Below, piece after piece: positions 363 to 40,036 of a stretch of DNA of 64,000 nucleotides (its first letter is position 1; the number at the start of each line of letters is the position of its first letter). A program made the translations under genes and the position numbers. The notes beneath the pieces are model-generated. The model made no database searches. It was not told the DNA's origin and saw only the letters and a list, made by a program, of their open reading frames with translations. Origin of the DNA: an uncultured Acidobacteriaceae bacterium (GTDB lineage: Bacteria > Acidobacteriota > Terriglobia > Terriglobales > Acidobacteriaceae). The stretch spans positions 860,694-924,693 of the forward strand of contig CAVSYW010000002.1 in assembly GCA_963732305.1 (NCBI GenBank), in the 5' to 3' direction.

Positions 363-1658
363 TCAGGCTCGACGGCCATCGCGCACGTTGGCAAAGAAAT
401 TTTCGGGGCCGATCTGGCCGCCTTTGAGCGCGAGTTCGAGTCCATCGAGTGGCGATGCTGCGCTGCCCCGGCAGAGCGGCACGCCGGCCACGAGCGGCGC
501 GGCAAAGGTCAGTGCGTCGATCCCCAGTTGCTTCACGGCATGAGTTGCCGTATCGCCGCCGGCGATCAGAACCCGGCGCACGCCGGTGGCGAGGACGAGC
601 TTGCGCAACAAAACGCCGAGGGCCGTGCCGAAACTTTCGCCGCGCTTTTCGTTCGGAATCTTTGGGCCGAGGGCGGTGTAAAGCACGACACTACGGCCGC
701 TCCTGAGCGATTTATGGGCGTTCGCTGCGACGGTGTTCCACGGTCCCGCGCCTTCAAGACGCCATGCGGCAAACCCCATCTGTTTCGCGCGACGAATCTG
801 CGTGGCCGTCACCGGCGAGCAGCTTCCGCTGAGCACCAGGAGCCGATCGACGGGCGGCGCGGGTTCGAGTGCCTGCGCGGCATGGATCAGTCCCATCGAG
901 CGCCAATGATGCAGAAGCCCATGCGTGAGACCGGAGCTGCCCACGGCAAAGACCGGCTGCACCGCCGCGCGTTCCCAGAGAATGCGTGCGGTTTCCTCAA
1001 GCATGGCGTCGGAGAAGCCATCGAAAACGACGGCGCCGGTATGAGCGGCCACCAGGCGCTGCCAATGTTTCTGCGCGGTTTGTGATTGGAAGGCGGCCAG
1101 ATTGACGAGGCCCATCGGGAGCTTTGTCTGCCGGGCGAGATGCAGGCGCAGGTCGGCCTCCGTCATGGGCGTCACAGGATGACGCCGCATGGTCGGATGG
1201 CGGTCGATGCGGTACATCACGCCGTCGGCCTTGGCGAACAAGTTCCCGAAGACAACGGCGCGTCCCAGGTGCGGCGCTCCCACGACGACAGGAACCGTGC
1301 CGGCGCGAAATACCTGGCGGCCCAACTCCATTGCGCGGCCAATACTGCCAACGCTGGGCGAGCTGTCAAATGTGGAGCAGACTTTGTAGTGATTTACCGG
1401 GGCGCCGAGCCGCCGCATGGCGCGAAAGATTGCGGGCAGATTGCGGCTCATCCATGCGGGTCCGCGGCTGCGGCTTTCGCCTGCGATTCCCACCGCGCGG
1501 CAATCGGAGAAAGCGGCAAGGGCACGCGCATCGGGCGTGCGCGTGAAAAGAACGGCCTTGACGCCGTGAAGCGCCAGCGCTTCAAGCACGTCGGTGGAAC
1601 CGGTAAAGTCGTCGCCGTACCAGACATAGAGCGGATGCGCTGCTGGTTGCGTGCTCAC
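363..1658 (-). CDS. oiaK: Four-carbon acid sugar kinase family (DUF1537/DUF1357_C), OiaK-like
   Basis: GDDFTGSTD, HYKVCSTFDS, LSGSCSP, IAGGDT, LKGGQIG motifs; GTG start at 1658 overlaps the RLP TGA (GTGA coupling). Confidence 0.85.
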   Translation of the reverse strand: MSTQPAAHPLYVWYGDDFTGSTDVLEALALHGVKAVLFTRTPDARALAAFSDCRAVGIAGESRSRGPAWMSRNLPAIFRAMRRLGAPVNHYKVCSTFDSSPSVGSIGRAMELGRQVFRAGTVPVVVGAPHLGRAVVFGNLFAKADGVMYRIDRHPTMRRHPVTPMTEADLRLHLARQTKLPMGLVNLAAFQSQTAQKHWQRLVAAHTGAVVFDGFSDAMLEETARILWERAAVQPVFAVGSSGLTHGLLHHWRSMGLIHAAQALEPAPPVDRLLVLSGSCSPVTATQIRRAKQMGFAAWRLEGAGPWNTVAANAHKSLRSGRSVVLYTALGPKIPNEKRGESFGTALGVLLRKLVLATGVRRVLIAGGDTATHAVKQLGIDALTFAAPLVAGVPLCRGSAASPLDGLELALKGGQIGPENFFANVRDGRRA

Positions 1659-2944
1659 GCGGCAAACGCCTCCAGCGCGGAGCGCAACTCTTCGTGGATT
1701 TTTGCATATTCGGCGAGAGCGATGCCCGCTGCCGCCGCTTCCCACGCTTGATGCAGACTGCGCACGCCTGCGGCAGGACCCGCGGGGTGGGCGAGAATTC
1801 CTCCACCACAGGCATAGATCAGATCCATCGAACCGAGCGCCTTGTATGTATCCGGCGCCTGGCGCGCGGACTGGCCCGAGGAAAAGACCGGCATGATCTC
1901 GCAGCCCTTATGCGGTGAAGGGAACATGGGCTTGAGACACTCTCGCGCGGATGCGATGACGCTCGCGTCGTCTTCGCAAAATTTGTTGCGCAGGCCGTTC
2001 ACGTGGATGTGATCGATGCCGGCGAGCCGCCAGAACTTCTGGAAGGCGATGAAGCTCATTCCCGTGGCATGCGAGCGGCTGAACATGCCCCAGCCGTTGC
2101 GATGGCCATGGATGGCTACCTGCGCATGACGACGCAGCGCGGTCATTGCGGGAAGGCCCACACTATTGACGCTGACCATTACACATGTGCCGCCGGAAGC
2201 GACCACCAGGTCATGACGGCGCAGCATCTGGTCAATTTCGCCGGTGATGTTGGCGGCATACATCGGCCGTTTGCCGATTCTCTCGGCGTATTCGTTCAGG
2301 GCGCGCAGGACCGCGGGAACTCGCTGATCGAAGGGGCAGTGGGGCCCGTCCGATTGCAGTTCGTCGTCCTTGATGAAATCGACGCCGGCCTCGGCCAGCA
2401 TCTTCACTTGTGCCGCGGTTTGCTCCGCCGAAAAGCCGACGCTCGGCTTGATAATCGTGCCGATGATCGGGCGCCCGTGGACGTTTGTGAGCCGCCGCGT
2501 GCCTTCCACGCCGAATTGCGGACCCAGATATGCAGACAGGAAGGCGGGCGGCAATGTGACGTCGAGCAGCTTGAGGCCGGAGAACGGCTTCAGCTCGAAG
2601 AGATTGCCCGCGACGGTTGCCAGCAGGTTGGGGAGCGAGGGGCCCATGTTTTCGATGGGCCAGGAAAGTGTGACTTCCGCGACGCGGCGCACCACGGGGC
2701 CGGTGTGTTTTCTCGGGAGGCCGGAACCGGCGAGCGACGGGGTATCGACTGTGCCCAATTCGACGATTCGCTCTACGCGCGCGGCGTGGCGCTCGCGGAG
2801 TTCGTCGGTTTCGCCTGGAACGCGCACAAACGTTCCAGTAGACTGCTCGCCTGCCATGGTCGCGGCCGCCTCTTCGAGCGGGAACGCCGTCTCGATCCAA
2901 TATCGTGCGTAAACTCGATCCGTACCTGGGGTCTGGCTTGTCAT
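1655..2944 (-). CDS. RuBisCO-like protein (form IV), 3-oxo-isoapionate-4-phosphate transcarboxylase/decarboxylase (OiaT/OiaX)-like
   Basis: GEQSTGT, AGNLFEL, GTIIKPSVG, DFIKDDE (carbamyl-Lys motif), HGHRNG, PVFSSG, CGGGILAHP; no small subunit; coupled to a DUF1537 kinase. Confidence 0.9.
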   Translation of the reverse strand: MTSQTPGTDRVYARYWIETAFPLEEAAATMAGEQSTGTFVRVPGETDELRERHAARVERIVELGTVDTPSLAGSGLPRKHTGPVVRRVAEVTLSWPIENMGPSLPNLLATVAGNLFELKPFSGLKLLDVTLPPAFLSAYLGPQFGVEGTRRLTNVHGRPIIGTIIKPSVGFSAEQTAAQVKMLAEAGVDFIKDDELQSDGPHCPFDQRVPAVLRALNEYAERIGKRPMYAANITGEIDQMLRRHDLVVASGGTCVMVSVNSVGLPAMTALRRHAQVAIHGHRNGWGMFSRSHATGMSFIAFQKFWRLAGIDHIHVNGLRNKFCEDDASVIASARECLKPMFPSPHKGCEIMPVFSSGQSARQAPDTYKALGSMDLIYACGGGILAHPAGPAAGVRSLHQAWEAAAAGIALAEYAKIHEELRSALEAFAA

Positions 2945-2953
2945 TCTTGTTCT

Positions 2954-4741
2954 CTAAACATGCTGGGCATACATCGTGTAGGCTTCATCGCGCACGAAAT
3001 AGAAGGGCGCGTAGGTTCGTGTCCGGTCCGCGGAGTGGAATGAAAAAACTCCCGCCATCTCCGCCGCGGGCCGTAAGGTCTCCTGAATTGCGTAAGTGGT
3101 CTCACCTTCCGCGGGCTTCTGCTCGACATAGACCAGCGGACCACGCAACAGCGCCACCGTCTCGGGATGCAGATCGTCGATTGCTTCTGTGCGAAATTGC
3201 ATGGGCAGTTGAAGAGTGAGCGTATCGCCGCTGGTCCAGCGACGCCGCACCACCGCAAATCCTCGCTCGATATCCGCATGCACCGATCTTCCATTAATGC
3301 GAATCGGCGGCGTCTCATTCATCCACGCAGGAACCCGCAATTGCATCGTGAACTGGGCCGGAGCAGTGCAAGTGACGCGCAAAGACACCGTCTCCCCCAG
3401 CGGGTATTCCGTTTCCTGCGTCAGCGTGACCGTAACTCCGCGCTGCAACCATTTCACGCGCGATGGCGCGTACAAATTGACGGCCACGCCGTCCCTCGCG
3501 CGGAAGTAAACATTCTTCACGTAGTCCGCGACGCTCTCCACGAGGGTTCCCGAGCAGCACGGCCATTTCTTGGCATAGAAAACCTTGTGCGCCGCCGCTC
3601 CATAGGTCGAGTAGTAGGGGTAATCACCGTCGGCGTCGGGTTCTTTCACCGCGAGAACGCCGTTGAAGACGACGCGCTCCAAACCGTCGCCGTAGCGCGC
3701 ATCGCCGGTGGCACAGAGGAGGTAACGCGCGAGTTTGATGGCTGCGTAACTGCCGCAGGGCGTCTCGAAATGATCGTTGGTTGTATGCAGGCTCTCGTAG
3801 AGTTGGCCTTTGCGCGGCTCGATGAATGTCTCGTTCGGCCCCCAACCTCCGGTGGCGAATTGCTGTGTGGATGCGAGAAGTTGCGCCGCGTTTTGCATGG
3901 CACGCAGATATTTTTCGTCGCCCAGCACGAGCCGCGCTTTGCCCGCCGAACTGAGCGCGATGACGTGGCTGTAAGCGTGCCGGCCCGGCAAAACATCCTG
4001 CCCCGCGGCAAGCGGATCGAAGTAATCGCGGTCAAGCATGTAGGCCATCGCGCGGTCGTACAGCGCGCGATCTCCAGTGAGCTCATGAGCGAGAAAAAGA
4101 GACTCGGGCAGAACGTAGGTCTCGTCGTAGGGAGGATCTTTCTTGCCGACCCGGTCGCGCCCGCGTTCGGGAATATACGGAAGAGCACCGTGAAACACGC
4201 GCGGAACAAGATCACGCGCATCCGAAATGCCGCTCAGATTGTACGCATCCATCAATCCGGCAAGGTGTTTGTCGAGGATGTAGCAGGGCCATACGTTTTC
4301 GGCGTTGGGCCCGGCAAAGCACTGGTATTTGGGGCCGAGAGTGGCCGCGAATCCATTTACCAACGCGGCAACCTTCGCAGCGCAGGCGGCGTCACCGGTG
4401 GTTCGGCCGATCCGAGCCAGCCCGGAGATGTATTGCCCAAGTGAATGGCCCGGTACGAAGCCATCGTGGCCGTACCAGCCGCCCATCGGCTCGCCCGGAG
4501 CAGGCAATCCAGCGCGTTCGCGATAGACCTTCAGCAGCCGATCGTTATCGAGGGCGAGATATGCAGCATGAATGCGATCGTACTGGCTCTTGAGAGGCCC
4601 ACCCGTCAGCTCGACCGCTCCATAATCGAACTCGGCCAGCACTTCAGACGCGCTGGGAAGGGCGGTTGTGCTTGCACCGCTCGCCAGTGTGGCCGCGGCT
4701 GCACCGGCTAGAAATTCCCTTCTCGTAATTTCGTTGTCCAT
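2954..4741 (-). CDS. GH127(/GH146) glycoside hydrolase with Tat signal (beta-L-arabinofuranosidase/aceric acid hydrolase family)
   Basis: TRREFL twin-arginine leader; GHSLGQY, HAYS, ETPCGSY and WPCCSGT (Cys3 Zn site) motifs; C-terminal beta-sandwich (TLTQETEYP, LRVPAW). Confidence 0.88.
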   Translation of the reverse strand: MDNEITRREFLAGAAAATLASGASTTALPSASEVLAEFDYGAVELTGGPLKSQYDRIHAAYLALDNDRLLKVYRERAGLPAPGEPMGGWYGHDGFVPGHSLGQYISGLARIGRTTGDAACAAKVAALVNGFAATLGPKYQCFAGPNAENVWPCYILDKHLAGLMDAYNLSGISDARDLVPRVFHGALPYIPERGRDRVGKKDPPYDETYVLPESLFLAHELTGDRALYDRAMAYMLDRDYFDPLAAGQDVLPGRHAYSHVIALSSAGKARLVLGDEKYLRAMQNAAQLLASTQQFATGGWGPNETFIEPRKGQLYESLHTTNDHFETPCGSYAAIKLARYLLCATGDARYGDGLERVVFNGVLAVKEPDADGDYPYYSTYGAAAHKVFYAKKWPCCSGTLVESVADYVKNVYFRARDGVAVNLYAPSRVKWLQRGVTVTLTQETEYPLGETVSLRVTCTAPAQFTMQLRVPAWMNETPPIRINGRSVHADIERGFAVVRRRWTSGDTLTLQLPMQFRTEAIDDLHPETVALLRGPLVYVEQKPAEGETTYAIQETLRPAAEMAGVFSFHSADRTRTYAPFYFVRDEAYTMYAQHV

Positions 4742-4784
4742 TGCGATGGGGTTGCTCTCCTCTGAACCCTACGGTGCGGTTCAG

Positions 4785-4816
4785 GGCCGCCGAAGGTCAA
4801 ACTTCGGCGGCCTTTT
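4785..4816 (+). terminator. Strong hairpin overlapping the regulator stop (U-run on + strand)
   Basis: GGCCGCCGAAG-gtcaaa-CTTCGGCGGCC-TTTT; a second hairpin at 4762-4784. Confidence 0.45.
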
Positions 4817-6038
4817 GATTCCGCAAAGCGGAATTTTCGGGGCCGCTCGCCGACTTGTGCGCGGCGCCTACCGCAGCCTCATCGAGAGGGTACACGAGGG
4901 CCACATTGCGCGGGGTCAACAACTGGTGCTTGACGAAGATGGCCGCCGGCACTGGTTTTTGCTGCAGAATATTGAGCGCCAGGGGAATCAGTTCATCGCC
5001 GTAGCGTTCGGGGAAATAGGCCACCGATCCGACCAGCCGCGTGCCCGGCCTGCGCAATTCCGCGCGCGCTTCGCGGAGGGCATTCTGGCCCATCACGGCG
5101 CACTGCTGCGATGCGCCGGCTTCTTCAAAAGCGCGCAGCGCGGCCAGTGCGCAGATATCGTTCACCGTGCCCACGAGCGTGCGGCGCGGTTCGCGGCGGC
5201 GCAGGTACTTGCGCAGCACGTCGAGCACCTGTTCAAAATTTCCGCGGCCGTTGAGCCGGACCAGCGGAGCCTCGACAATTCTCGGCAACTCCGCGCGCAG
5301 CCCGTCGACCAGGCCGGAAAGGCGCAACTCCAGGAGCGACCCGGCGATGGGCAGCTCCACAAGAACCAGCTGATCCACCTTGCCTTCCCAGTTTTCGCGC
5401 GCCCAACGGCCCAGGGCGCGACCGCCGATGAGCCCGGCCTTATAATTATCCGCGCCGAAGTAAGTAGCGCCTGGATGCGGCACTTCGATGGCGATGACGG
5501 GCACGTTTGCGGCCAGAAATTTTGAGGCGATGACGGGCGCCACGCGCTCGTAGGTCTGGAATTCGAGGACCAGGTCGACGCGTTCGCGAATCAGCACATC
5601 GGCGTTGCGCAACGCCTCGCGGGCGCTGTAGCGATTGTTGAGGGTGATGAGCTGCACGTGCTCACGCGCCGCTGCGTTGACCAAGCTGCGCGTCACCTCG
5701 CGCGCAAATTCAGTGTCGCCCTGCGTAGCAAAACCGATGCGGAAAGGCCGCGCCGTGACCGGTCCAAAACTGTTGCGATAGACGCCCGCACTCACGCGCT
5801 CCACCAGCCCGCCGTGAATGAGCGTGCGCAGCAGGCGAAAGGTGGTGGTCTTGGGCAGGCCGGTGCGCTCCATTACAGTGGTGAGCGGCAAATCTTCTCC
5901 GAGATGACGAAAAGCTTTGAGCACTTCGCATGCGCGCAGAACAGTCTGCGACTCATTGCGGTCGCTGCTGCGGCCATTCGCCTCCGCGGCGTCCTGCTCC
6001 AGATCCTCCGGGGCCTGTTTGTCCTCGCGTCGCGCCAC
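4797..6038 (-). CDS. Transcriptional regulator: IclR-type HTH fused to a periplasmic sugar-binding-like domain
   Basis: N-terminal SQTVLRACEVL...TGLPKTTTFRLLRTL HTH followed by a LacI/RbsB-type domain (VIAIEVPHPGATYFGADN, VMGQNA). Confidence 0.85.
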   Translation of the reverse strand: MARREDKQAPEDLEQDAAEANGRSSDRNESQTVLRACEVLKAFRHLGEDLPLTTVMERTGLPKTTTFRLLRTLIHGGLVERVSAGVYRNSFGPVTARPFRIGFATQGDTEFAREVTRSLVNAAAREHVQLITLNNRYSAREALRNADVLIRERVDLVLEFQTYERVAPVIASKFLAANVPVIAIEVPHPGATYFGADNYKAGLIGGRALGRWARENWEGKVDQLVLVELPIAGSLLELRLSGLVDGLRAELPRIVEAPLVRLNGRGNFEQVLDVLRKYLRRREPRRTLVGTVNDICALAALRAFEEAGASQQCAVMGQNALREARAELRRPGTRLVGSVAYFPERYGDELIPLALNILQQKPVPAAIFVKHQLLTPRNVALVYPLDEAAVGAAHKSASGPENSALRNQKAAEV

Positions 6039-6079: not shown

Positions 6080-6107
6080 AGTATATTCCGATTCCCGGAA
6101 TTGGCAA
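6080..6107 (-). promoter_or_regulatory. sigma70-like promoter of the regulator with a palindromic operator in the spacer
   Basis: Minus strand TTGCCA-N16-TATACT; perfect palindrome ATTCCG-N5-CGGAAT at 6085-6101. Confidence 0.6.
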
Positions 6108-6362
6108 GTCCGATTTTTGCTTCGTCCGCAGGGGCCCCGCACGCGCGGTTGAATTCCGACCGGTCCTCAGGATCGTCCCAGACTTCCGATCCCAGGGGAC
6201 GCGCCCGACCGAAGGGTTGCGGCACGTGAAGTGGGCGCGCGAATCGAGAGAGCCGAGAAGTGATTGGCTCTACCAATCTCCTACCAGCGAAAGCGTTTGC
6301 TGTTGACCGATTCAGCCGCGGCAAATACGATTCGCTTGGAACCGACAGGAGAAACAATTGGG

Positions 6363-7214
6363 ATGGAAATGCCGCCGAAAGAACCGGAGCGCGCTGCTTG
6401 GCTGAAGCACAGAGCCAATTGGATCCGGCTCAGCGCCATGACCATGAACCATCATGCGCAACTGGGTCACACCGGCGGCGATCTCTCCGCAGCCGACATC
6501 CTGGCCGTGCTGTTTCTCGGCGGACTTTTGAAAATTGACCCTGCGCAACCCCGATGGCCCGAGCGTGATCGCTTCATTCTCTCCAAGGGGCACGGCGCCG
6601 CGGCGTATTATTCGACGCTCGCCGCGCGCGGATTTTTCCCGATCGAGCAGCTTAAGACCTACATGGACCCGCTCTCGATGCTGAACGGCCATCCAGACCG
6701 CAACAAGCTGGCCGGCGTCGAGGCCAACACCGGCCCGTTGGGGCACGGGTTGCCCATCGCTGTGGGCGCGGCGTTGGCTGCCCGCATGAGAAAGGAGTCC
6801 TGGCGGGTGTTTGTCCTCACCGGCGATGGTGAGTTGCAGGAGGGCTCCAACTGGGAGGCCGCGATGACCGCGCAACACTACGGTCTCGACCAACTCACCG
6901 TAATTGTGGACCGCAATCGCATCCAGCAGGGCGATTTTACGGAAAATACGATTCGCATGGAGCCGTTGGCCGAGCGCTTCCGGGCGTTCGGATTCGCCGT
7001 GGAGGAAATCGACGGCCACTCCACTGCGGCACTCTTCGATCGCTTGTCGCATTTGCCTCTGGAAAAGAGCAAGCCCTCGTGCATCATCGCGAACACGGTG
7101 AAGGGCAAGGGTGTTTCTTTCGCGGAAAATCAACCTGCATGGCATCATGGCGTGCCAACGAAGGAGCAACTTGCCACGGCGGCGAGAGAACTTGGCGTGG
7201 AGGTGGCGTGGTGA
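6363..7214 (+). CDS. aptA: Transketolase N-terminal subunit (apulose-4-phosphate transketolase A-like)
   Basis: GHTGGDLS, LSKGH, GPLGHGL, GDGELQEGSNWE ThDP motif, WHHGVP; AGGAG upstream of ATG 6363. Confidence 0.85.
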   Translation: MEMPPKEPERAAWLKHRANWIRLSAMTMNHHAQLGHTGGDLSAADILAVLFLGGLLKIDPAQPRWPERDRFILSKGHGAAAYYSTLAARGFFPIEQLKTYMDPLSMLNGHPDRNKLAGVEANTGPLGHGLPIAVGAALAARMRKESWRVFVLTGDGELQEGSNWEAAMTAQHYGLDQLTVIVDRNRIQQGDFTENTIRMEPLAERFRAFGFAVEEIDGHSTAALFDRLSHLPLEKSKPSCIIANTVKGKGVSFAENQPAWHHGVPTKEQLATAARELGVEVAW

Positions 7215-8179
7215 GCGGCTTATCCTCATCTGCAACCGGCCAGCAGCTCTTCGACTGCCGCGACGCCTATATGAACGCTCTTGAAGAGATGGCGGCCGTC
7301 GACCCGCGCGTGTGTGCCGTGGCCAACGACTCGGTGTCTTCGGCGAAGCTCAAGAATTTTAAAAGCAAGTTCCCTGAGCGCTTTGTCAATGTCGGCATTG
7401 CCGAACAGAACATGGTGGGCGTAGGCGCGGGGCTGGCAAACGGCGGCATGGTTCCTTACGTCTGCGGCGCGGCGTGCTTCCTGACCGCGCGCGCCATGGA
7501 GCAGATCAAAGTCGATCTCGCGTACACCAAAGCAAACGTGAAGCTCTGCGCCATGTCGCCGGGCATGGCCTACGGACAGCTTGGGCCCACGCATCACTCC
7601 ATTGAAGATTTGGCCTGGATGCGCGTGCTGCCGAATCTCGTCGTGATTGTTCCGGCCGATCCCGCGGAGACCGCGGCTGTGATGCGCTACTCGCTCGTGC
7701 ACGAGGGGCCGATGTTCCTGCGCATCGCGCGCGTGCCCGTGCCGCGCGTGCATGGTGACGATTACGAATTCAGATTGGGTAAAGCTGTGCGGTTGCGCGA
7801 GGGCTGCGATGTAACTCTTATTGCGAACGGTCTGTTGGTGAGCCGCGCCCTCGATGCGGCCAAAGCGCTTGAGGCGCGCGGACTATCGGCGCGCGTGCTG
7901 AATATGAGTACTGTGAAACCGCTCGATGGCGAGGCGATTCTTGATGCGGCCCGCACCACTCGCGGCATTGTCACCGCGGAGGAAGCATTGGCGGCCGGTG
8001 GATTGGGTGGCGCAGTCGCCGAGGTGCTTGCGCTGGAACATCCCGCGCCGATGCGCATACTGGGCGTGCCCGACGTTTTCGCGCCTACGGGTACGGCAGA
8101 ATTCCTGCTCGAACATTTTGGGCTGACCGCGGCGGGGATCGAATGCGCGGCCCTGGAACTGCTGAAGCGAGAGGCATAG
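7211..8179 (+). CDS. aptB: Transketolase C-terminal subunit (apulose-4-phosphate transketolase B-like)
   Basis: VNVGIAEQNMVG, RAMEQIK, GPTHHSIED, GGLGGAVAE; GTGA overlap with aptA. Confidence 0.85.
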   Translation: MSGLSSSATGQQLFDCRDAYMNALEEMAAVDPRVCAVANDSVSSAKLKNFKSKFPERFVNVGIAEQNMVGVGAGLANGGMVPYVCGAACFLTARAMEQIKVDLAYTKANVKLCAMSPGMAYGQLGPTHHSIEDLAWMRVLPNLVVIVPADPAETAAVMRYSLVHEGPMFLRIARVPVPRVHGDDYEFRLGKAVRLREGCDVTLIANGLLVSRALDAAKALEARGLSARVLNMSTVKPLDGEAILDAARTTRGIVTAEEALAAGGLGGAVAEVLALEHPAPMRILGVPDVFAPTGTAEFLLEHFGLTAAGIECAALELLKREA

Positions 8180-32320: not shown

Positions 32321-32334
32321 ACTGCGAGGGGAAA

Positions 32335-33531
32335 ATGATGAAACTTTCGGATTCTGCGGTTCAGGATGCTGCATTCAAGGCGCTCGATGCGTTCAAGATC
32401 GAGATTCCCTCATGGGGATTCGCCAACACCGGCACGCGCTTTGGCAAATTTGTGCAGGCTGCCGCCGCCACCACCATTGAAGAGAAGTTTGCCGATGCGG
32501 GCGAGGTGAACAAGCTGACCGGCGTGACGCCTACCGTGGCGCTGCACGTGCTTTGGGATTTGCCCAATGGCGTGAAGGATGTGGCGGAAGTGAAGGCGCT
32601 GGAGAAGCGCTTCGGCGTGAAGTCGGGATCGATCAACCCAAATTTGTTTCAGGACCAGGAGTACAAGTACGGCTCGCTCTGCAACCCCTCGGCGGAGATT
32701 CGCGCGCACGCGCTGGAGCACATGCTGGATTCGATCGAGATCGCTAAGGCCCTCGGGTCGCGCGACATCTCGCTGTGGATGGCGGACGGCTCGAATTATC
32801 CGGGCACGCAAGCCATGCGCAAGCGCATCACCTGGCTCGAGGAAGCATTGCGGGTTTCGCACGATCACATGGCGCACTACCAAAGGCTGCTCGTCGAGTA
32901 CAAACCGTTTGAGCCGGCTTTCTACCACACCGATATTGCGGACTGGGGTATGTCGAGCCATTTTGCCAAAATGGCCGGTCCGCAGGCGCGGGTGCTGGTG
33001 GATACCGGACATCACTACAACGCGCAGAATATCGAACAGATTGTTGCGTGGCTGCTGCACACGAATATGCTGGGCGGGTTCCACTTCAACGACCGGCGCT
33101 ATGCCGACGACGATCTGACGCTGGGCTCGATCGATCCTTACCAGATCTTCCGCATCTTCCACGAGATTCACGCGGCTGCCGACGATGGGCTGGGCGGCGA
33201 GATTGCTTACATGATCGACCAGAGCCACAACCTGAAGGGCAAGATGGAAGCCATGGTGCAGACGGTGATGACGGCCCAGGAACTGTATCTGAAGGCGGCG
33301 CTGGTGGATCGCCATCAGCTGGCCGGCTTGCAGCAGTCGTGCGATCTGGTGGCTGCCGAGGAGTTGTATCGCGGCGCTTTCTGGACCGATGTGCGGCCGG
33401 TGCTGAGCGCGTGGCGCGAGGCGCATGGATTGCCTGCCGATCCGCTGGCGGCGCTCAAAGAGAGTGGCTACGTGGAGCGCGTGGGCAAGGAGCGGGGAAG
33501 CCGGAGCATGGCGGTTAGTAGCTACGCGTGA
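32335..33531 (+). CDS. rhaI: L-rhamnose isomerase (xylose-isomerase-like TIM barrel, RhaI type)
   Basis: EIPSWGFANTGTRF, INPNLFQDQEYKYGS, EYKPFEP, DWG, VDTGHH, HFNDRRYADDDL, MIDQSHN. Confidence 0.93.
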   Translation: MMKLSDSAVQDAAFKALDAFKIEIPSWGFANTGTRFGKFVQAAAATTIEEKFADAGEVNKLTGVTPTVALHVLWDLPNGVKDVAEVKALEKRFGVKSGSINPNLFQDQEYKYGSLCNPSAEIRAHALEHMLDSIEIAKALGSRDISLWMADGSNYPGTQAMRKRITWLEEALRVSHDHMAHYQRLLVEYKPFEPAFYHTDIADWGMSSHFAKMAGPQARVLVDTGHHYNAQNIEQIVAWLLHTNMLGGFHFNDRRYADDDLTLGSIDPYQIFRIFHEIHAAADDGLGGEIAYMIDQSHNLKGKMEAMVQTVMTAQELYLKAALVDRHQLAGLQQSCDLVAAEELYRGAFWTDVRPVLSAWREAHGLPADPLAALKESGYVERVGKERGSRSMAVSSYA

Positions 33532-33576
33532 AAAGCAGCTGTCAGCTAGTAGAGTTAGGTTGAAGTCGATGGTCTT

Positions 33577-33611
33577 CCCCGGTCCCCAAAAGCGAGGGAC
33601 CGGGGGCACCC
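33577..33611. repeat. REP-like hairpin family A
   Basis: ccccggtccc-caaaagcga-gggaccgggg-gcaccc. Confidence 0.8.
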
Positions 33612-33666
33612 AGCAATTCGGGGCGGTTTGACTCCGCTCCCATAAATATGGGAGCCTTAGGTTTCG

Positions 33667-33918
33667 ATGAAGACTACGCTTGAAATCCCGGACCCAATTT
33701 TCCGCCGCGCCAAAGCGGTTGCGGCGCAGCGAGGCGTTGCCTTGCGCGTTTTTGTTACCGAAGCGGTCGAGGAGAAATTGGCCGGCACATCTCGAAAGGG
33801 AGAGAAGCCCTGGGCCAAACTGGTAGGCGGCCTCAAGCATCTTCACAAAGAGACGACGCGCATCAACGGAATCATGAAGGCGGAGTTTGAAAAGATCGAA
33901 CCCGAGGACTGGGAGTGA
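33667..33918 (+). CDS. vapB: VapB-like antitoxin (RHH)
   Basis: MKTTLEIPDPIFRRAKAVAA RHH start; GTGA overlap with a PIN toxin gene. Confidence 0.8.
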   Translation: MKTTLEIPDPIFRRAKAVAAQRGVALRVFVTEAVEEKLAGTSRKGEKPWAKLVGGLKHLHKETTRINGIMKAEFEKIEPEDWE

Positions 33919-34292
33919 TTGTCGATACGAACGCTCTTTCGGCGATCGCGGACAATGAAGCTGCGGCGGCACGAATCGCGACTCGGGCGGAATCGATTGA
34001 ACTGCCGGTCATTGTTCTCGGCGAATACCGCTTCGGGATCGCGCAATCCCGTCGTCGCGCAGAGTACGAGCAGTGGCTCGGGAAACTGATTACAGCAACG
34101 CGGGTCTTGCCTGTCGATGAAGAGACCTCCAGCCAGTATGCCAAAATTCGCGCAGAGCTCAAAAAAGCCGGTCAGCCCATCCCTTCGAACGATCTATGGA
34201 CCGCCGCTCTCGCACGCCAGCATCGACTTACCCTCATGAGCCGCGATCTGCACTTCGATCATGTCCAGGGGCTTAAGCGAATTGGCTGGTGA
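33915..34292 (+). CDS. vapC: VapC PIN-domain toxin
   Basis: IVDTNALS, VLGEYRFG, IPSNDLWTAALA, SRDLHF acidic PIN residues. Confidence 0.92.
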   Translation: MIVDTNALSAIADNEAAAARIATRAESIELPVIVLGEYRFGIAQSRRRAEYEQWLGKLITATRVLPVDEETSSQYAKIRAELKKAGQPIPSNDLWTAALARQHRLTLMSRDLHFDHVQGLKRIGW

Positions 34293-34399
34293 CAGCATCT
34301 TGTCGTCCGGCCGTTTCACATCTAAGTTGTTACGGGGCAAGTTGTTCTATGATGTTGTGATGCCTGGGTTTCATTAGGGACACAGGTGCGGAGGCGTCG

Positions 34400-35548
34400 T
34401 TGGCCAAAGCTAAGATCAAACGGCTCTACTTGATTCCGATCCTTTCCAAGGCGCTCGACGTGATTGAGCTGCTGGAGCAGGACAACTCTCCACTGACGCT
34501 GGAAGACGTTTACCAGAAGACCAACATCTCGAAGACCAGCGTGTACCGGATTTTGAAGACGCTGGTGCATCGCGGCTACCTGGCACAGATGCCGAATGGG
34601 CAGTACCGGCTGGTTTCGCGGCCGCGGCGGCTGTGTTTCGGTTTTGCCGTGCAGAGCGCGGAGATGCCGTATTCCGAAGCCGTGGCGCAGAGCGTGAGTG
34701 CGGCGGCCGCGGCGGCGGGCGTGGAGCTGCTGCTGCTGGACAACCGCTACGATCCGGCGATGGCGGTAAGAAATGCCGAGGAGTTTGTGGCCAAGCGCGT
34801 GGACCTGGTGCTGGAGTTCCAGGTGGAGGAGGCGGCTGCGCCGAGGGTGGCGCACATATTCAAGAAGGCCGACATTCCACTGGTCGCGATCGACGTGCCT
34901 CACCCGAATGCGACGTATTTTGGCGTGGATAATTTTGAAGTGGGCTACGAAGCGGCGGCGATTCTGGCCAACTATGCGCTGCGCAAGTGGAAGGGCAAGG
35001 TGGATCGCGTGGTGGGCCTGGGATTTATCGAGGCCGGCAGCTTTGTGCAGAACCGCATCACGGGCGCATTCGACGGAATCCGCGAACGCTTCAGGGACCT
35101 CGATCCCGAATGCTTTGTGCGGCTCGAAGGCCGCGGCATGCGCGACGCGAGCCACAAAGCGATGAAGGAGTTGTTGCGGGGATCGAAGCCCGGCGAGCAC
35201 ACGCTGGTGGCCGCGGCTACGGATTCGAGCGCGCTGGGTGTGCTGGACGCGGTGCGCGAGGCGGGCCTGGAAGAAAATTTCGCCATCGTGGGGCAGGACT
35301 GCATTCCTGAAGTGATGGAAGAGATGAAGCGCGGCGGGAGCGCGATGGTTGGCTCGATTTCGCACGAGCCGGAAACTTACGGGCCGCGGCTGATCCAGTT
35401 GGGGATTGCGATTCTGCGCGGGTATACGGTGCCTCCTTATAACTACGTGCATCACAAGGCGGTGACGCCGGAGACGCTGGGGGCGGAGGAGAAGGCGAAG
35501 CATGGCAATGGGGCGAAGGCGCTGGTGGAGCAGGGCGTAAGCCAGTAG
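34400..35548 (+). CDS. Transcriptional regulator: IclR-type HTH fused to sugar-binding domain (rhamnose locus)
   Basis: KALDVIELL...KTSVYRILKTL HTH; VAIDVPHPNATYFGVDN; paralog of 4797-6038. Confidence 0.85.
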   Translation: MAKAKIKRLYLIPILSKALDVIELLEQDNSPLTLEDVYQKTNISKTSVYRILKTLVHRGYLAQMPNGQYRLVSRPRRLCFGFAVQSAEMPYSEAVAQSVSAAAAAAGVELLLLDNRYDPAMAVRNAEEFVAKRVDLVLEFQVEEAAAPRVAHIFKKADIPLVAIDVPHPNATYFGVDNFEVGYEAAAILANYALRKWKGKVDRVVGLGFIEAGSFVQNRITGAFDGIRERFRDLDPECFVRLEGRGMRDASHKAMKELLRGSKPGEHTLVAAATDSSALGVLDAVREAGLEENFAIVGQDCIPEVMEEMKRGGSAMVGSISHEPETYGPRLIQLGIAILRGYTVPPYNYVHHKAVTPETLGAEEKAKHGNGAKALVEQGVSQ

Positions 35549-35605
35549 CCAATAGGCAATAGCCAGTGGGGAGTAGTTTTCGTGCTGGGGTTGGGGGCGT
35601 GCTTT

Positions 35606-35640
35606 CCCCGGTCCCCAAAAGCTAGGGACCGGGGGCACCC
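35606..35640. repeat. REP-like hairpin family A
   Basis: ccccggtccc-caaaagcta-gggaccgggg-gcaccc. Confidence 0.8.
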
Positions 35641-35736
35641 TCATGTTGTGGTGAGTTTGCTTCCTGAAGGACCAGGCCACGTGCAACTGGAACCCCCGAA
35701 GCCAAGCAGCGGCCCCGGTTACGGAGGGTACGACTC

Positions 35737-36066
35737 ATGGCCCAAATGACACCCTTCAGATACGGCGGCTTCTACGACGTACCTCGATACATCTCACTTC
35801 GCTATCGGGGACGGCGATTCGTGCTGCAGAGCCCATTTGATGAGGATCTTGACGAATACCCCAGCGAGTACTCGGTTTACATTGTCCCTGAATCTGCTGA
35901 CGATTCACAGCCGGTCTGTCCTCCAGAGTTCTTCCTCAATACGCCAACGGCTTGCATTGGACATATTCAAATAGACCAAGTGACGTTTGACCCGAGTAAT
36001 CGCAAGGAACTTGACGCCTCCATCCTCGACAGCTTGATTGCCGACCAAGAGCCGAGAACTCAATGA
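35737..36066 (+). CDS. Hypothetical protein (109 aa, acidic)
   Basis: GGAGGG RBS, protein-like composition (FYDVPR, FDEDLDEY), lower GC than flanks; no family recognised. Confidence 0.6.
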   Translation: MAQMTPFRYGGFYDVPRYISLRYRGRRFVLQSPFDEDLDEYPSEYSVYIVPESADDSQPVCPPEFFLNTPTACIGHIQIDQVTFDPSNRKELDASILDSLIADQEPRTQ

Positions 36067-36346
36067 CATGCTTGCGCGACGCTCCACGGGCGGCCTGGAC
36101 TACCGCTGACGAACCGCATTACTTGCCACGCACGCCTGAATTCCCCGAATAAAACGGTTTCCTGACGGCTGCCGCTGTATCATAGACATGTGCTCGATCC
36201 TTTCCCCGATCGGCGCGCTCCAGAACTCTTGAAATGTTAGCCAGAGCTGGTTTGGAAGCGGGCAAGATGTGTACCCTTCTCGCGCGGCACGCGAATGCGA
36301 ATTTTCAGAACAAGGCGAATTTCGATTTCGCCCATGAGTGCTTCTT

Positions 36347-38557
36347 ATGACAACTGCTACTGCTTCCCCTGTATTGCATTTCCTTGAGGACCGCTGGGAC
36401 TTTGCCCACGCGGCCACTCTCGACGAACCTGAGCTCCTGCGTTATCGCTCGAATCTGCTTGGGTCGGACTTGCGCATTACCAATTTTGCCGGAGGCAATA
36501 CAAGCTCCAAAATTCTGGAGATGGATCCGCTGACGGGCGAGCCGGTGGAAGTGCTGTGGGTGAAAGGCTCGGGCGGCGACCTGGGTTCGATCAAGCGCAG
36601 CGGTTTTGCCACGCTCTATATGGATAAGCTGCTGGTGCTGGAGCGCAAGTACGGGGGCGTGGATACGGAAGACGAGATGGCGGAGATGTATCCGCTGTGC
36701 GCGTTCAAGAACAATCCTGTAGCCGCGTCGATTGACACGCCGCTTCACGGATTTTTGCCGTTCCCGCATGTGGATCACCTGCACCCCGACTGGGGGATTG
36801 CGTTGGCGGCGAGCGCGAACGGCAAAGCCAAGATGGACGAGTTCAACCGCGAGTTCGGACACCGGCTGGTGTGGCTGCCGTGGCAGAGGCCGGGCTTTGA
36901 ACTGGCCATGATGATGAAGCGTGCGGTGAAAGAGAATCCTGGCTGCGATGGGATCGTACTGGGCGGGCACGGGCTGTTTACCTGGGGCCAGACGCAGCGC
37001 GAGTGCTACCTGAATACGCTGACGACGATCGACCAACTGGGACAGTTTATTGAGCGGCATGGACGGGGCAAGACGCGCTTTGACGGCGAGGTACAGCCGG
37101 CGCGGGCCGATCGTAAAGAACTGGCGGCACAGATTGCGCCGTTCTTGCGCGGCCGCATCAGCGCGAAGCATCGTTTTATTTCGAGCTTTAGCGACGCGGC
37201 AGATGTGCTCGAGTTTATCGATTCGGCGGACGCGAAGGAGCTGGCTTTTCTGGGAACGAGCTGCCCGGATCACTTTATCCGCACCAAGATCCGGCCGATG
37301 TTTGTGCCGTGGAATGCGGGCGAGGATTTGCAGGCACTGCGGGATCAGATCGACATCTCTTTGTCGAATTACCGCGATCAGTACCGGCAGTATTACCGGA
37401 CATTTGCGACCAAGGATTCGCCGGCGCTGCGCGATGCCAGCCCCGCCGTGGTGCTGATACCGGGGATGGGGATGTTCAGCTTCGGCAAGAATAAGACCGA
37501 GGCGCGCATCACGGGCGAGTTCTATACGAATGCCATCCACGTGATGGAAGGCGCGAGCTTGCTGGGCGAGGGCGAGGTGACGGGAGTGCTGCCACAATGC
37601 CCGCCGGGAATGGATCCTGCGAGCTTCAAGGTGTTTTCGAATTATGTGGCGCTGCCGGCGGTGGAAGCGTTCCGCATCGAGTACTGGGCGCTGGAAGAGG
37701 CGAAGATTCGCCGCCAGCCGCCGGAGAAAGAATTGAGCCGGCGCGTGGCGCTGGTGGTGGGCGGGGCCAGCGGCATCGGACGCGAAGTGGCGCACCTGGC
37801 CGCGGTGCGCGGCGCGCACGTTTTTATTGCCGACCGCAACACGGAGGGTGCGGCGCAGGTTGCTATGGAGCTGGGTTCGGTTGTGCCGGTGGAATTTACC
37901 GGCAGTTCGTCGGTGGACATCCGAAGCAGGGATTCGATTCGCGAGATGCTGAGCGCGGCGGCGCTGGCGTTCGGCGGGATCGATATTCTGATCAACACGG
38001 CGGCAATCTTTCCGTCGACGCTGACGGGCGAAATTCCCGACGAGATGTGGGCCGATACCATGGCCATCAACGTGACGGCGAATTACCTGCTCGCCGACGA
38101 GGCAGCCAAGCTGTTCGAGGAACAGGGACTGCACGGCAACATCGTGTTCACGAGTTCGGCGAACGCGGTGGTGGCCAAGCGCGGCAGCGAGGCGTACGAC
38201 GTGAGCAAGGCGGCGCTGTCGCATTTGATTCGCGAGCTGGCGGTGAGCATGGCGCCGAACGTGCGCGTGAACGGCATCAGCCCGGCGACGGTGGTGAAAG
38301 GATCCACGATGTTCGGACGCGACCGGCTGCTGGCTTCGCTGAAGAAGTACAATATTCCTTTCCGGGAAACTTTCAGCGATGAGGAGCTGCGCAGCCGCCT
38401 GGCCGCGTTCTACGCCGAGCGCACGTTGACGAATAAGGCCATCGATCCGGCCGATTGCGCAGAATCCATTCTCTTCCTGGCCAGTCCTCGGGCGCGCTGC
38501 ACGACGGGACATGTGATTCCCGTGGACGGCGGACTGACCGAGGCGTTTCAACGCTGA
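36347..38557 (+). CDS. rhaEW: Bifunctional rhamnulose-1-phosphate aldolase / short-chain dehydrogenase
   Basis: GGNTSSK, VKGSGGDL, VDHLHPD, SCPDHFIRTK; SDR part GGASGIG, YDVSK, VRVNGISP, PVDGG. Confidence 0.93.
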   Translation: MTTATASPVLHFLEDRWDFAHAATLDEPELLRYRSNLLGSDLRITNFAGGNTSSKILEMDPLTGEPVEVLWVKGSGGDLGSIKRSGFATLYMDKLLVLERKYGGVDTEDEMAEMYPLCAFKNNPVAASIDTPLHGFLPFPHVDHLHPDWGIALAASANGKAKMDEFNREFGHRLVWLPWQRPGFELAMMMKRAVKENPGCDGIVLGGHGLFTWGQTQRECYLNTLTTIDQLGQFIERHGRGKTRFDGEVQPARADRKELAAQIAPFLRGRISAKHRFISSFSDAADVLEFIDSADAKELAFLGTSCPDHFIRTKIRPMFVPWNAGEDLQALRDQIDISLSNYRDQYRQYYRTFATKDSPALRDASPAVVLIPGMGMFSFGKNKTEARITGEFYTNAIHVMEGASLLGEGEVTGVLPQCPPGMDPASFKVFSNYVALPAVEAFRIEYWALEEAKIRRQPPEKELSRRVALVVGGASGIGREVAHLAAVRGAHVFIADRNTEGAAQVAMELGSVVPVEFTGSSSVDIRSRDSIREMLSAAALAFGGIDILINTAAIFPSTLTGEIPDEMWADTMAINVTANYLLADEAAKLFEEQGLHGNIVFTSSANAVVAKRGSEAYDVSKAALSHLIRELAVSMAPNVRVNGISPATVVKGSTMFGRDRLLASLKKYNIPFRETFSDEELRSRLAAFYAERTLTNKAIDPADCAESILFLASPRARCTTGHVIPVDGGLTEAFQR

Positions 38558-38608
38558 GGAAGGGCGTTCAAGGAAGAGCGCTGAAGAAAATGGGGAACTG
38601 CTGCCGTC

Positions 38609-40036
38609 ATGCAAGAGCCTGCTCGTGTTGCCATTGATTTAGGCGCGGAAAGCTGCCGGGTTTCGCTGCTTCGCTGGGTGGATGGTCGTCCGGCAATCGA
38701 AATCATCCATCGCATTCCCAACGGACCTAAGCATCGCGGCGCATCGCTCTACTGGTCGCTGACGGAGATTCTCGCCGGGCTTGAGGAAGGACTGCGCAAG
38801 GCAGCGGCGACGGCGACTGAGGGGATCGCGTCGATCGGCGTGGATAGTTGGTCCGTCGATTACGTGCGGCTTGGGCAAGATGGCAAGATGCTGTGCGAGC
38901 CTTTTTGCTATCGCGATGAGCGCACGACGAAGACGAAGCAAGCTGCAGACGCAATCATCTCTTCCTTCGACATCTATCGGCGCACGGGCGCTTATCCCAT
39001 CAATCTCAACACTGTGTATCAGCTCATGGCCGATCCTGTGGCGGGGATCGAGAAGAGCGCGCCGTGGGTGATGTTCCCGGAGTTCGTTCTTTACTGGCTG
39101 AGCGGGCGGCGCGTGGGCGAGTATACGAATGCCGCGCACACAGGGCTTGTGAATCTGAAGACGGGCACGTGGGATGCGGAACTGTTTGAGATGCTGGGGT
39201 TGGATGTCGCCGCCGCGCCGCCGCTGGTGGCGACGGGGACAGTTCTGGGGCCGATAACGGGACCGCTCGCGGCGCTCGACGCCTTCCGCGCGACACAGAT
39301 TATTGCGCCGGCCACGCACGACACGGCGAGCGCCATCGCGGGCATTGCCACGGATCTTAGCTCGGCCGCGTATATCAGCTCGGGCACATGGTCGCTGGTG
39401 GGCACGATTACGCAGACACCGGTGACGACGCGGCACGCCTTCGACGCGGGTTACACGAACATCGGCGCTGCGGGCGGAGGGCTGCTGTTTCACTCGCTCA
39501 TCAATAGCATGTGGCTGCTGAAGCAGTGCATGGACGGCTGGGCGGCGGAGGGGCGGCCGTGGAAGATCGAGGATATCGTCGAGAAGGCTGCCGCATGCAA
39601 TGCCACCGGCGGAGTGCTCGATATGGATGCGCCGACGTTGATGCTCGACTCGGGCATGCCGGAGCGCATGAACAGCGAGTTGAAGCGGCTGGGATTCGAA
39701 GCGATTCCCGACGTGGCGGGCAACGAGCCGCTGTTTGCGCGGACGATTTTTGAAAGCCTGGCGCTGCGGTATGCGTCGGCGCTCGCGAATCTCGAAAAGA
39801 TGCTGGGCCGCAAGCTCGACCGCATTCACATGATTGGCGGAGCCACGCGTAACAAACTGTTGATTGAGCTGACCGAGAAGCAGACCGGGCTGAAGGTCGA
39901 AATCGGCGAGACCGAAAGCTCGACGGTGGGCAGCCTGGCGATTCAACTGGCGGCGAGCGAGGCGACGGGTGAGCGGGTGACGCCCGCGGCTATCGCTAAG
40001 TGGGCAGAGCGGCTGTGCGAGAAGCAGCGTTGCTGA
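38609..40036 (+). CDS. rhaB: Rhamnulokinase (FGGY family)
   Basis: AIDLGAESCR, SIGVDSWSVDY, YRDERT, ATHDTASA, YISSGTWSL, IGGATRN. Confidence 0.92.
   Translation: MQEPARVAIDLGAESCRVSLLRWVDGRPAIEIIHRIPNGPKHRGASLYWSLTEILAGLEEGLRKAAATATEGIASIGVDSWSVDYVRLGQDGKMLCEPFCYRDERTTKTKQAADAIISSFDIYRRTGAYPINLNTVYQLMADPVAGIEKSAPWVMFPEFVLYWLSGRRVGEYTNAAHTGLVNLKTGTWDAELFEMLGLDVAAAPPLVATGTVLGPITGPLAALDAFRATQIIAPATHDTASAIAGIATDLSSAAYISSGTWSLVGTITQTPVTTRHAFDAGYTNIGAAGGGLLFHSLINSMWLLKQCMDGWAAEGRPWKIEDIVEKAAACNATGGVLDMDAPTLMLDSGMPERMNSELKRLGFEAIPDVAGNEPLFARTIFESLALRYASALANLEKMLGRKLDRIHMIGGATRNKLLIELTEKQTGLKVEIGETESSTVGSLAIQLAASEATGERVTPAAIAKWAERLCEKQRC

Follow-up and report, generated by a model that had tools for sequence, protein, structure and literature searches.

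Three neighbouring catabolic modules for plant cell-wall sugars in an Acidobacteriaceae genome: probably a mosaic rather than the remnant of a single island

The pectic polysaccharide rhamnogalacturonan II (RG-II) is reportedly degraded by Bacteroides thetaiotaomicron through dedicated polysaccharide utilisation loci, described by Ndeh and colleagues in 2017, in which enzymes of the glycoside hydrolase (GH) 127 clan, GH78 and GH140 are said to act on side chain B. An oxidative route for D-apiose, from work of Carter and colleagues in 2018, is said to use OiaK together with OiaX, acting as a decarboxylase or a transcarboxylase/hydrolase, and to be fed by ApnL and ApnO. Two further systems bear on the DNA considered here. 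A transketolase route for D-apiose (Carter et al. 2018; MetaCyc PWY-8089) is encoded by gene clusters in Pectobacterium carotovorum and in Escherichia coli ST131/ST1193, and the E. coli cluster supports growth on D-apiose in a growth assay (bioRxiv 10.1101/2025.09.14.675865). For L-rhamnose, the bifunctional enzyme RhaEW has been validated biochemically (Rodionova et al. 2013; PMC3870299), and in the same study the lactate genes lldD/lldEFG were found in the rhamnose (RhaR) regulons of RhaEW-encoding genomes, from which an extension of the pathway to pyruvate was inferred. Genes related to these systems lie close together in a 64,000-nucleotide stretch of DNA (the window; C2:860694–924693) from an uncultured Acidobacteriaceae bacterium. 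A sequence-only reading of this stretch had proposed that genes for three consecutive sugars of RG-II side chain B (aceric acid, L-rhamnose and D-apiose) are clustered here, that an apiose locus with a RuBisCO-like protein (RLP) and a rhamnose locus were once adjacent in one island, and that the two share a sink for lactate. Comparison with relatives leads us instead to think that the span is probably a mosaic of three independently inherited catabolic modules and not what is left of one island.

The three modules are M1, the RLP cassette (1–6038), M2, the apiose module (6264–14724), and M3, the rhamnose and lactate genes (29044–40036). M1 and M2 together make up locus A, whilst M3, the lut/rha array, is locus B. 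Their genes are as follows.

1–345, plus strand: M1, C-terminus of a major facilitator superfamily (MFS) transporter, an anion:cation symporter resembling D-galactonate transporters (weak NCBIfam match, TIGR00893)
363–1745, minus strand: M1, acid-sugar kinase of the DUF1537 type (SBD_N/NBD_C), OiaK-like (Pfam PF07005, PF17042)
1655–2944, minus strand: M1, RLP of the glycosidase-associated type I clade (Pfam RuBisCO_large, tree)
2954–4741, minus strand: M1, six-hairpin glycosidase of the GH127/GH146 clan, hereafter GH127-like (Pfam PF07944, PF20736)
4797–6038, minus strand: M1, RegA, an IclR-type helix-turn-helix (HTH) domain fused to a periplasmic-binding-protein (PBP) sensor domain (Pfam)
6264–8179, plus strand: M2, split transketolase, AptA/AptB-like, with N-terminal subunit (tktN) 6264–7214 and C-terminal subunit 7079–8179 (Pfam)
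8180–9691, plus strand: M2, FGGY kinase, GlpK-like, candidate apulose kinase (Pfam)
9640–13282, plus strand: M2, CUT2 ATP-binding cassette (ABC) transporter, with ATPase 9640–11256, permease 10953–12338 and solute-binding protein (SBP) 12212–13282 (Pfam)
13279–14724, plus strand: M2, isomerase of the L-fucose isomerase fold, FucI-like (Pfam Fucose_iso_C)
29044–32050, plus strand: M3, L-lactate oxidation complex, with lutA 29044–29808, lutB 29805–31304 and lutC 31301–32050 (Pfam)
32272–33531, plus strand: M3, rhaI, L-rhamnose isomerase with a xylose-isomerase-like TIM barrel (TIGR02635 489 bits, cut-off 531)
33667–34292, plus strand: M3, vapB-like gene 33667–33918 and vapC PIN toxin gene 33915–34292, between rhaI and regB (Pfam PIN, NF047863)
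34400–35548, plus strand: M3, RegB, the RegA paralogue of the rhamnose locus (Pfam, alignment)
36338–38557, plus strand: M3, rhaEW, bifunctional rhamnulose-1-phosphate aldolase/lactaldehyde dehydrogenase (NF006189 976 bits, cut-off 634; Pfam Aldolase_II and adh_short)
38609–40036, plus strand: M3, rhaB, rhamnulokinase of the FGGY family (TIGR02627 303 bits, cut-off 528; Pfam FGGY_N, FGGY_C)

The genome under study (G000) has a size of 4.92 Mb in 9 contigs and is 91% complete; its closest public relatives are Terracidiphilus and Acidobacteriaceae metagenome-assembled genomes (MAGs). Proteins encoded by the open reading frames (ORFs) of the window were identified by Pfam and NCBIfam scans, with the NCBIfam equivalog cut-offs as the yardstick, and all of the genes named in the sequence-only reading are present where it had placed them. 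Relatives were compared in two samples. The first consists of 36 congeners screened for RLP, RhaEW and LutB, and the second of 80 RLP loci (L010–L089) from several phyla, taken with flanks of ±10 kb; the 49 genomes behind these loci were also searched for RhaEW, whose presence was scored with the aldolase half and with DNA searches, not with the whole protein. Some of the MAGs are rich in frameshifts, and the genes of G017 appear in pieces.

The distribution of the lactate genes carries much of the argument. In at least 13 congeners without RLP (G001, G006, G007, G010, G013, G015, G016, G019, G021, G024, G028, G029 and G033), LutB and RhaEW share a contig and lie ~2–6 kb apart, and the same proximity, again without RLP, is seen in two genomes of another family. 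RLP is present in 3 of the 36 congeners, whereas RhaEW and LutB are common among the 36. Because of this recurrent neighbourhood, together with the precedent in PMC3870299, we regard lutABC as part of the rhamnose module; the link between rhamnose and lactate is already known biology. From the side of the RLP the result is the converse, none of the 80 loci having lut or rha genes within ±10 kb. The proposal that lactate is a sink common to both loci is thus not borne out by these comparisons, nor by the promoter of lutA, as described below. The three-subunit complement of the lactate complex is complete, with two CCG domains in LutA, LUD and Fer4 domains in LutB and a LUD domain in LutC, and LutB scores 444.8 bits with TIGR00273, which is exactly the cut-off of that family.

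In its core M3 resembles the RhaEW-type rhamnose clusters of PMC3870299. It has putative rhaI and rhaB genes and rhaEW, with lutABC (equivalent to lldEFG) in the same co-directional array, and all of its genes, vapBC and regB included, are on the plus strand. The match of RhaEW to its family is far above the cut-off and its function is that established in PMC3870299, so that this part of the earlier reading, the formation of L-lactate from rhamnose, holds good. The best matches of RhaI and RhaB are to the L-rhamnose isomerase and rhamnulokinase families, in both cases under the equivalog cut-off, and the genomic context fits these assignments. M3 differs from the described clusters in its regulator, RegB, whose IclR-HTH/PBP fusion is outside the regulator types treated in PMC3870299, where Acidobacteria are not mentioned. 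It also differs in that Pfam and NCBIfam reveal no rhamnose transporter between 29044 and 40036 and no mutarotase in the locus, that vapBC and hairpins of the repetitive extragenic palindromic (REP) type are interspersed between the genes, and that a divergent S53 peptidase gene is conserved beside it. A small ORF, orf109 (35737–36066, 109 aa), was considered as a rhamnose mutarotase gene; it has no Pfam or NCBIfam match and is not conserved in relatives, and judged on its sequence it is probably not a gene. The vapB-like and vapC ORFs overlap by 4 bp, and the orthologous rhamnose loci of G017, G061 and G062 gave no match to VapC.

Between M2 and M3 lies a region of ~14 kb occupied by repeats and S53 genes:

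14958–15987, no strand assigned: five copies of a REP-like hairpin, CCCCGGTCCCC-N7-GGGACCGGGG (motif count)
16086–21053, minus strand: S53a, paralogue of a sedolisin (S53) with Ig-like domains, in four overlapping ORFs (Pfam Pro-kuma_activ, Peptidase_S8, Big_3_5)
21291–28880, minus strand: S53b, 2529-aa sedolisin with 13 Big_3_5 repeats, divergent from lutA (Pfam)

The S53 pair had been taken for an insertion that separated two formerly adjacent loci. Two S53 genes and hairpins are indeed found there, although S53a is frameshifted, with three frame changes relative to S53b (near 20297, 19364 and 17590), and is either a pseudogene or the product of indel errors in a long-read assembly. Counterparts are missing from G017, G061 and G062, and the window alone has a second S53 copy, which points to a duplication specific to G000. 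An S53 gene lies divergently beside lutA in eight genomes (the window, G017, G061, G062, G029, G033, G021 and G024), and the last four of these are without RLP. The S53 gene is therefore not an insertion between loci A and B, but would be a long-standing neighbour of lutA; this arrangement is not seen in G006, G007 and G028. In addition, in G017 (C1:342763–350394) and G061 (C34:162783–170327) a 6.8 kb block separates the M2 isomerase gene from the S53 gene. It encodes other sugar genes, namely an MFS sugar transporter, an unknown 467-aa protein, a xylose-isomerase-like TIM barrel, a Gfo/Idh/MocA oxidoreductase and an alginate-lyase-family protein, is 88.6% identical between the two genomes and is absent from G000. 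Such an intervening block runs counter to the idea of a once continuous island. The REP-like hairpin has 8 copies in the window where none is expected by chance. Four copies at 15719–15987 are spaced at exactly 80 bp, the remaining ones follow lutC (32113–32141), rhaI (33577–33605) and regB (35606–35634), and the same hairpin is dispersed through G017, G031 and G032. The GC skew is ~0.20–0.26 at 16000–32000, the interval of the minus-strand S53 genes and part of lutABC, and ~0.0–0.13 in the remaining window.

The modules are linked in very different ways in the relatives. In G017 the order is M1, M2, 6.8 kb block, S53, M3, and the whole of locus A is collinear with the window. In G061, M2, the 6.8 kb block, S53 and M3 share one contig (C34) with downstream genes that match those of the window, and M1 is on another (C27). 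G062 has M1 and M2 together on C37, followed by 24.5 kb without S53, lut or rha genes, and has S53 and M3 on C98. In G031, M1, M2, lutABC with RegB, and a split rhaEW are on four contigs of 380–900 kb. Here the part of the genome corresponding to window bases 4–4726 (MFS transporter, kinase, RLP and GH127-like genes) is on C5 and the transketolase, kinase and isomerase genes of M2 are on C8, and it is because of this division of the left locus that we treat M1 and M2 as two modules. Orthologues of M2 (at least 79% identity to the isomerase) are found without RLP in G006, G010, G022 and G033, away from the contigs that carry lut and rha genes. In the wider sample, 18 of the 49 RLP genomes searched have RhaEW, and in 16 of the 18 the RhaEW and RLP genes are on separate contigs; in the other two they are 370 kb and, on a closed Granulicella chromosome, 49 kb apart. 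No genome examined has locus A abutting lutABC. The test by synteny in relatives that the sequence-only reading had suggested has thus come out in two parts: the loci are unlinked in G031, G062, G006 and 16 of the 18 wider genomes, and M2, S53 and M3 are linked in G017 and G061. Outside the window this last linkage was seen in these two genomes only. Since it is confined to the immediate subclade, shared descent is a sufficient explanation for it.

M2 taken by itself is a credible module for the uptake of D-apiose and its breakdown by the transketolase pathway, with the specificity predicted from sequence comparison. Six of its proteins have reciprocal best hits, at 39–56% identity, in the cluster ECSF_RS02670–02715 of E. 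coli SE15, the one for which the growth assay showed use of D-apiose: the transketolase subunits at 45% and 42%, the FGGY kinase at 43%, and the ATPase, permease and SBP of the ABC transporter at 44%, 53–56% and 39%. The kinase falls just short of its family cut-off (NF000756, 495.7 bits against 498). Among structures in the PDB the SBP scores best with 5IBQ and 4RY0 (323 bits), compared with 183 bits for ribose-binding proteins. Like the described D-apiose transketolase clusters, M2 therefore combines a split transketolase and an FGGY kinase with an ABC transporter whose SBP is closely related; unlike them, it lacks both the ApsI isomerase of Pectobacterium and the two short-chain dehydrogenase/reductase (SDR) genes and DUF2291 of E. 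coli, and it is associated with a different regulator. The FucI-fold enzyme is the only candidate isomerase in the module. It stays with the transketolase arm in G017, G031, G061 and G062, and a paralogue of 48% identity is encoded elsewhere in G000. In G031 a gene with a GH140-like 'apiosidase' domain lies 2 kb from the M2 arm.

M1 is less easily assigned. The full ORF of its MFS transporter (C2:859743–861035) begins 950 bases before the window and is the first gene of the module. The kinase–RLP gene pair has its best family matches in OiaK (NF042436, 449 bits) and OiaX (NF042437, 445 bits), both far under cut-offs of 700, and among PDB entries the RLP matches 3NWR best (408 bits). With the aceric acid hydrolase model NF049879, the cut-off of which is 950, the GH127-like protein reaches 93 bits; it is not a member of that equivalog, nor is it close to the BT1003-type chain 5MQO (52 bits, compared with 137 for 5OPJ, its best PDB match, and 40 for 3WKW). 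None of the three proteins thus reaches an NCBIfam equivalog cut-off. M1 resembles the oxidative D-apiose pathway in this gene pair and in the nesting of its RLP among RLPs of loci that have ApnL and an ApnO-like gene with a PGDH_C domain. It differs in that the pair is accompanied by an MFS transporter of the acid-sugar type and by GH127-like, GH42, GH78 and GH29 genes, and in that a tblastn search of the 4.92 Mb of G000 gave neither an ApnL nor an ApnO-like homologue at E ≤ 1e-5. The canonical route to 3-oxo-isoapionate is therefore missing from G000, and the kinase and RLP would have to be supplied with a ready-made branched acid. What the sequence-only reading called an apiose/RLP locus thus has to be divided: the apiose part stands, in the form of M2, and the RLP part is a separate module.

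The census of the 80 RLP loci shows that M1 belongs to a widespread type of cassette. The kinase gene adjoins the RLP gene in 76 loci, the MFS gene is kept beside the two in 48 and the GH127-like gene adjoins the RLP gene in 42. Type I loci (38 of the 80, the window included) have a GH127-like gene and an acid-sugar-type MFS gene and are without ApnL and an ApnO-like gene within 10 kb; their neighbours include GH42 in 27 loci, GH78 in 25, a beta-propeller GH in 16, a GDSL esterase in 12, and also GH29 and, in the sphingomonad versions, GH106. Type II loci (25 of the 80) have a gene with a PGDH_C domain, which by its sequence is probably ApnO, and in 7 of them the D-apionate lactonase ApnL as well (806 bits, cut-off 750); type II is the canonical oxidative apiose route. 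In the tree the type I RLPs group together as a single derived clade with members in Acidobacteriota and Proteobacteria (Sphingomonadales, Steroidobacteraceae), a pattern that suggests horizontal spread of the cassette. Within this clade a subgroup (L021 and L023–L026) keeps the ApnO-like gene and ApnL, and in L024 the ApnO-like, ApnL, GH127-like, RLP and kinase genes form one co-directional array. As the apionate operon of L024 includes the same GH127-like enzyme, M1 could just as well be a shortened apiose branch or serve another substrate. M1 also differs in position between close species. In G061 it lies at C27:123069–138500, in a block with genes for a TonB-dependent receptor, the beta-propeller GH, GH42, MFS transporter, kinase, RLP, GH127-like protein and RegA, and at C34:178782–181709 a GH78 gene abuts tktN across a gap of 75 bp with no M1 between them. 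The cassette thus appears to behave as a relocatable unit. G061 is a MAG, and an assembly artefact in the placement of its M1 is possible.

The regulators of loci A and B are paralogous, as had been noted, and RegA aligns with RegB from end to end at 36% identity (E 3e-73). RegA accompanies M1 in 17 acidobacterial loci, and orthologues of RegB, 80–93% identical, are found in the lut/rha loci of G017, G031, G061 and G062. In G031 (C12:237671–241702) the RegB orthologue is tail-to-tail with lutABC and rhaEW, in two pieces, is on another contig, so that in this genome the RegB-type regulator stays with the lactate genes and not with rhaEW. Three short elements are candidate operators:

4818–4834, no strand assigned: perfect palindrome ATTCCG-N5-CGGAAT, candidate RegA operator, 77 bp upstream of the GH127-like start
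6085–6101, no strand assigned: second copy of the same perfect palindrome, in the divergent regA/tktN intergenic region
28973–28989, plus strand: ATTGCAATAGACAATTG, a 17-bp block ~55 bp upstream of lutA, candidate operator (footprint comparison)

The palindrome occurs in exactly two perfect copies in the 64 kb, both flanking regA, and no copy with fewer than two mismatches is found in M3 and none at the lutA promoter. Since the palindromes flank only M1 and M2, we propose that RegA probably controls these two modules jointly in G000. The block upstream of lutA is invariant in G000, G017, G061 and G062 despite divergence of the DNA around it, occurs only once in the window, and is followed by a TATGAT-like −10 box. 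Footprinting places it at lutA specifically and finds distinct conserved blocks in front of rhaEW. In a search for an operator common to lutA and the rha genes, the only element that the M3 intergenic regions proved to have in common was the genome-wide REP-like hairpin. Between the promoters of lutA and locus A no common operator was found in the sequence.

The surroundings of M1 extend beyond the window. The 22 kb before the window start (C2:838695–861035) carry glycan-degrading genes directly upstream of M1, in this order:

C2:838695–861035, first part: MGH1-like GH, SSS symporter, PdxA-family dehydrogenase, and a protein with DUF5060, Apiosidase (GH140-like) and DUF5605 domains
C2:838695–861035, second part: 1360-aa TonB-dependent-receptor-like protein, GH29, GH78 (rhamnosidase), beta-propeller GH (43/32/130-like), GH42 and MFS transporter

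The GH42 gene appears to be frameshifted near its 3′ end. The earlier description of the stretch and the ~20 kb upstream as rich in genes for plant cell-wall sugars is confirmed by the GH78, GH29, GH42 and GH140-like genes found there. As in the RG-II loci of B. thetaiotaomicron, genes of the GH127 clan, GH78 and GH140-like genes are co-located, with GH106 in the sphingomonad cassettes. Unlike those loci, this one has no SusC/SusD pair, only a TonB-dependent-receptor-like gene; its GH127-like enzyme is not close to BT1003/5MQO; most of the RG-II-specific families are not seen; and monosaccharide catabolism is encoded alongside depolymerisation. The upstream glycosidases are compatible with M1 acting on an acid sugar that is already branched, for example aceric acid. 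Our search of the literature on aceric acid catabolism or RG-II use by Acidobacteria found nothing relevant.

How do these observations bear on the origin of the arrangement? That loci A and B are halves of one ancestral island for RG-II side chain B, split by the S53 pair and using LutABC as their common lactate sink, agrees with the adjacency of the three modules and the paralogy of the regulators, and the nearby GH78, GH29, GH42, GH127-like and GH140-like genes match the sugars of the side chain. There is also a chemical argument for it, in that a kinase and RLP without ApnL and ApnO need a pre-formed branched acid, and an OiaT-like reaction on 2-keto, 1-phospho aceric acid would, by analogy with 3-oxo-isoapionate-4-phosphate, give 3-phosphoglycerate and L-lactate. 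The reaction of the RLP is, however, a prediction, aceric acid as the third sugar is suggested by gene context, with a GH127-like protein that scores far under the aceric acid hydrolase cut-off, and the history that the idea requires is at odds with the S53 gene beside lutA in genomes without RLP, with the dispersal of the modules in G031, G062, G006 and most of the other genomes with both RLP and RhaEW, and with RLP loci without lut genes and a lutA promoter without the RegA palindrome. We consider a single ancestral island improbable. A related suggestion is that the type I cassette encodes a pathway not yet described, whose substrate would be a naturally branched acid sugar and most plausibly L-aceric acid. 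It would have evolved from the apionate pathway with the loss of ApnL and ApnO, its RLP would give 3-phosphoglycerate and L-lactate, and in this Terracidiphilus subclade it would have been brought beside the apiose and rhamnose/lactate modules, so that LutABC would serve both routes. We give this little credence in its complete form; a shared lactate sink is chemically possible, but neither the comparisons nor the promoter sequences speak for it. A simpler assignment needs two sugars only. In it M1 would be a second, oxidative D-apiose branch (OiaK with OiaX or OiaT), the GH127-like enzyme would free apiose or arabinose, and there would be no route for aceric acid. The best NCBIfam matches of the kinase and RLP, the type I clade loci L023–L026 that still have ApnL and an ApnO-like gene, not least the array of L024, and the RegA sites that tie M1 to M2 all agree with this, whilst the scores so far under the cut-offs, the acid-sugar type of the MFS transporter, and the lack of ApnL and ApnO-like homologues, both in the 91% of the genome that is covered and in the 38 type I loci, do not; on balance we find it rather unlikely.

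Several of our own results weigh against a mosaic of unrelated parts, and some of them suit another explanation, that of a super-locus selected without common ancestry. RegA and RegB are the only two proteins of their architecture in G000. The linkage of M2, S53 and M3 is kept in three species-level genomes (the window, G017 and G061) and is not random within the subclade, and genes for sugar release and for sugar catabolism are co-localised over ~60 kb, which selection for a super-locus could explain. The comparisons have weak points as well: a whole-protein RhaEW search (18 of 39 candidates scored) missed the G017 copy, which the DNA search found, and many of the relatives are fragmented MAGs, for which linkage past the contig ends cannot always be excluded when genes are on different contigs. 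Adaptive co-localisation of the modules with hydrolases, each module keeping its own regulator, would let a toolkit for rhamnose-, fucose- and apiose-containing pectic fragments be inherited together. The upstream glycosidase block is conserved with M1 across Acidobacteriota and Sphingomonadales, the backbone GH29–GH78–(M1)–M2–...–S53–M3 has been kept in the window, G017 and G061 despite turnover between its parts, and the 6.8 kb block of the latter two likewise encodes sugar genes. Against this, descent alone would lead one to expect conservation in three genomes at ~84–88% DNA identity, Acidobacteriaceae genomes are so dense in carbohydrate-active enzymes that such neighbourhoods arise easily, and the linkage is absent in other congeners with the same modules. 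A selected super-locus is in our view possible, with the odds against it.

We therefore return to the mosaic of three independently inherited modules, which we think the probable explanation and which would work in the following way. In M3, RhaI, RhaB and RhaEW would turn rhamnose into dihydroxyacetone phosphate (DHAP) and L-lactate, and LutABC would oxidise this L-lactate to pyruvate as the last step of the rhamnose module, the S53 gene being the old divergent neighbour of lutA. The module has RegB and its own conserved operator-like block at lutA. M2 would contribute apiose uptake, through an ABC transporter with an apiose-type SBP, along with an FGGY kinase and a split transketolase, with the FucI-fold isomerase in the place of ApsI. 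M1 would be a relocatable cassette, found across phyla beside GH42, GH78 and GH29 genes and derived from apionate-pathway RLPs with the loss of ApnL and ApnO. M2, and later M1, would then have joined the old S53–lutABC–rha unit only in the Terracidiphilus subclade of the window, G017 and G061, the RLP cassette having been inserted or lost next to M2. The identities of the genes, their synteny and the positions of the motifs are observed, whereas the pairing of regulators with operators, the order in which the rearrangements took place and every substrate specificity are deduced from them. On this reading the arrangement is for the most part an ordinary, lineage-specific juxtaposition of modules of known type.

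If the single island with its shared sink were correct, it would give the first genetic handle on bacterial aceric acid catabolism, and a case in which the most complex glycan of plants is taken apart one sugar after another by a bacterium of the soil. The placement of lutABC in the rhamnose pathway guards against over-reading gene proximity of this kind. The type I cassette, which crosses phyla, is without apionate-forming enzymes and lies amid rhamnosidase, fucosidase and GH127-clan genes, is a testable candidate for an acid-sugar pathway, and it is carried by cultured bacteria, among them Telmatobacter bradus, Bryocella elongata and several Sphingomonas species.

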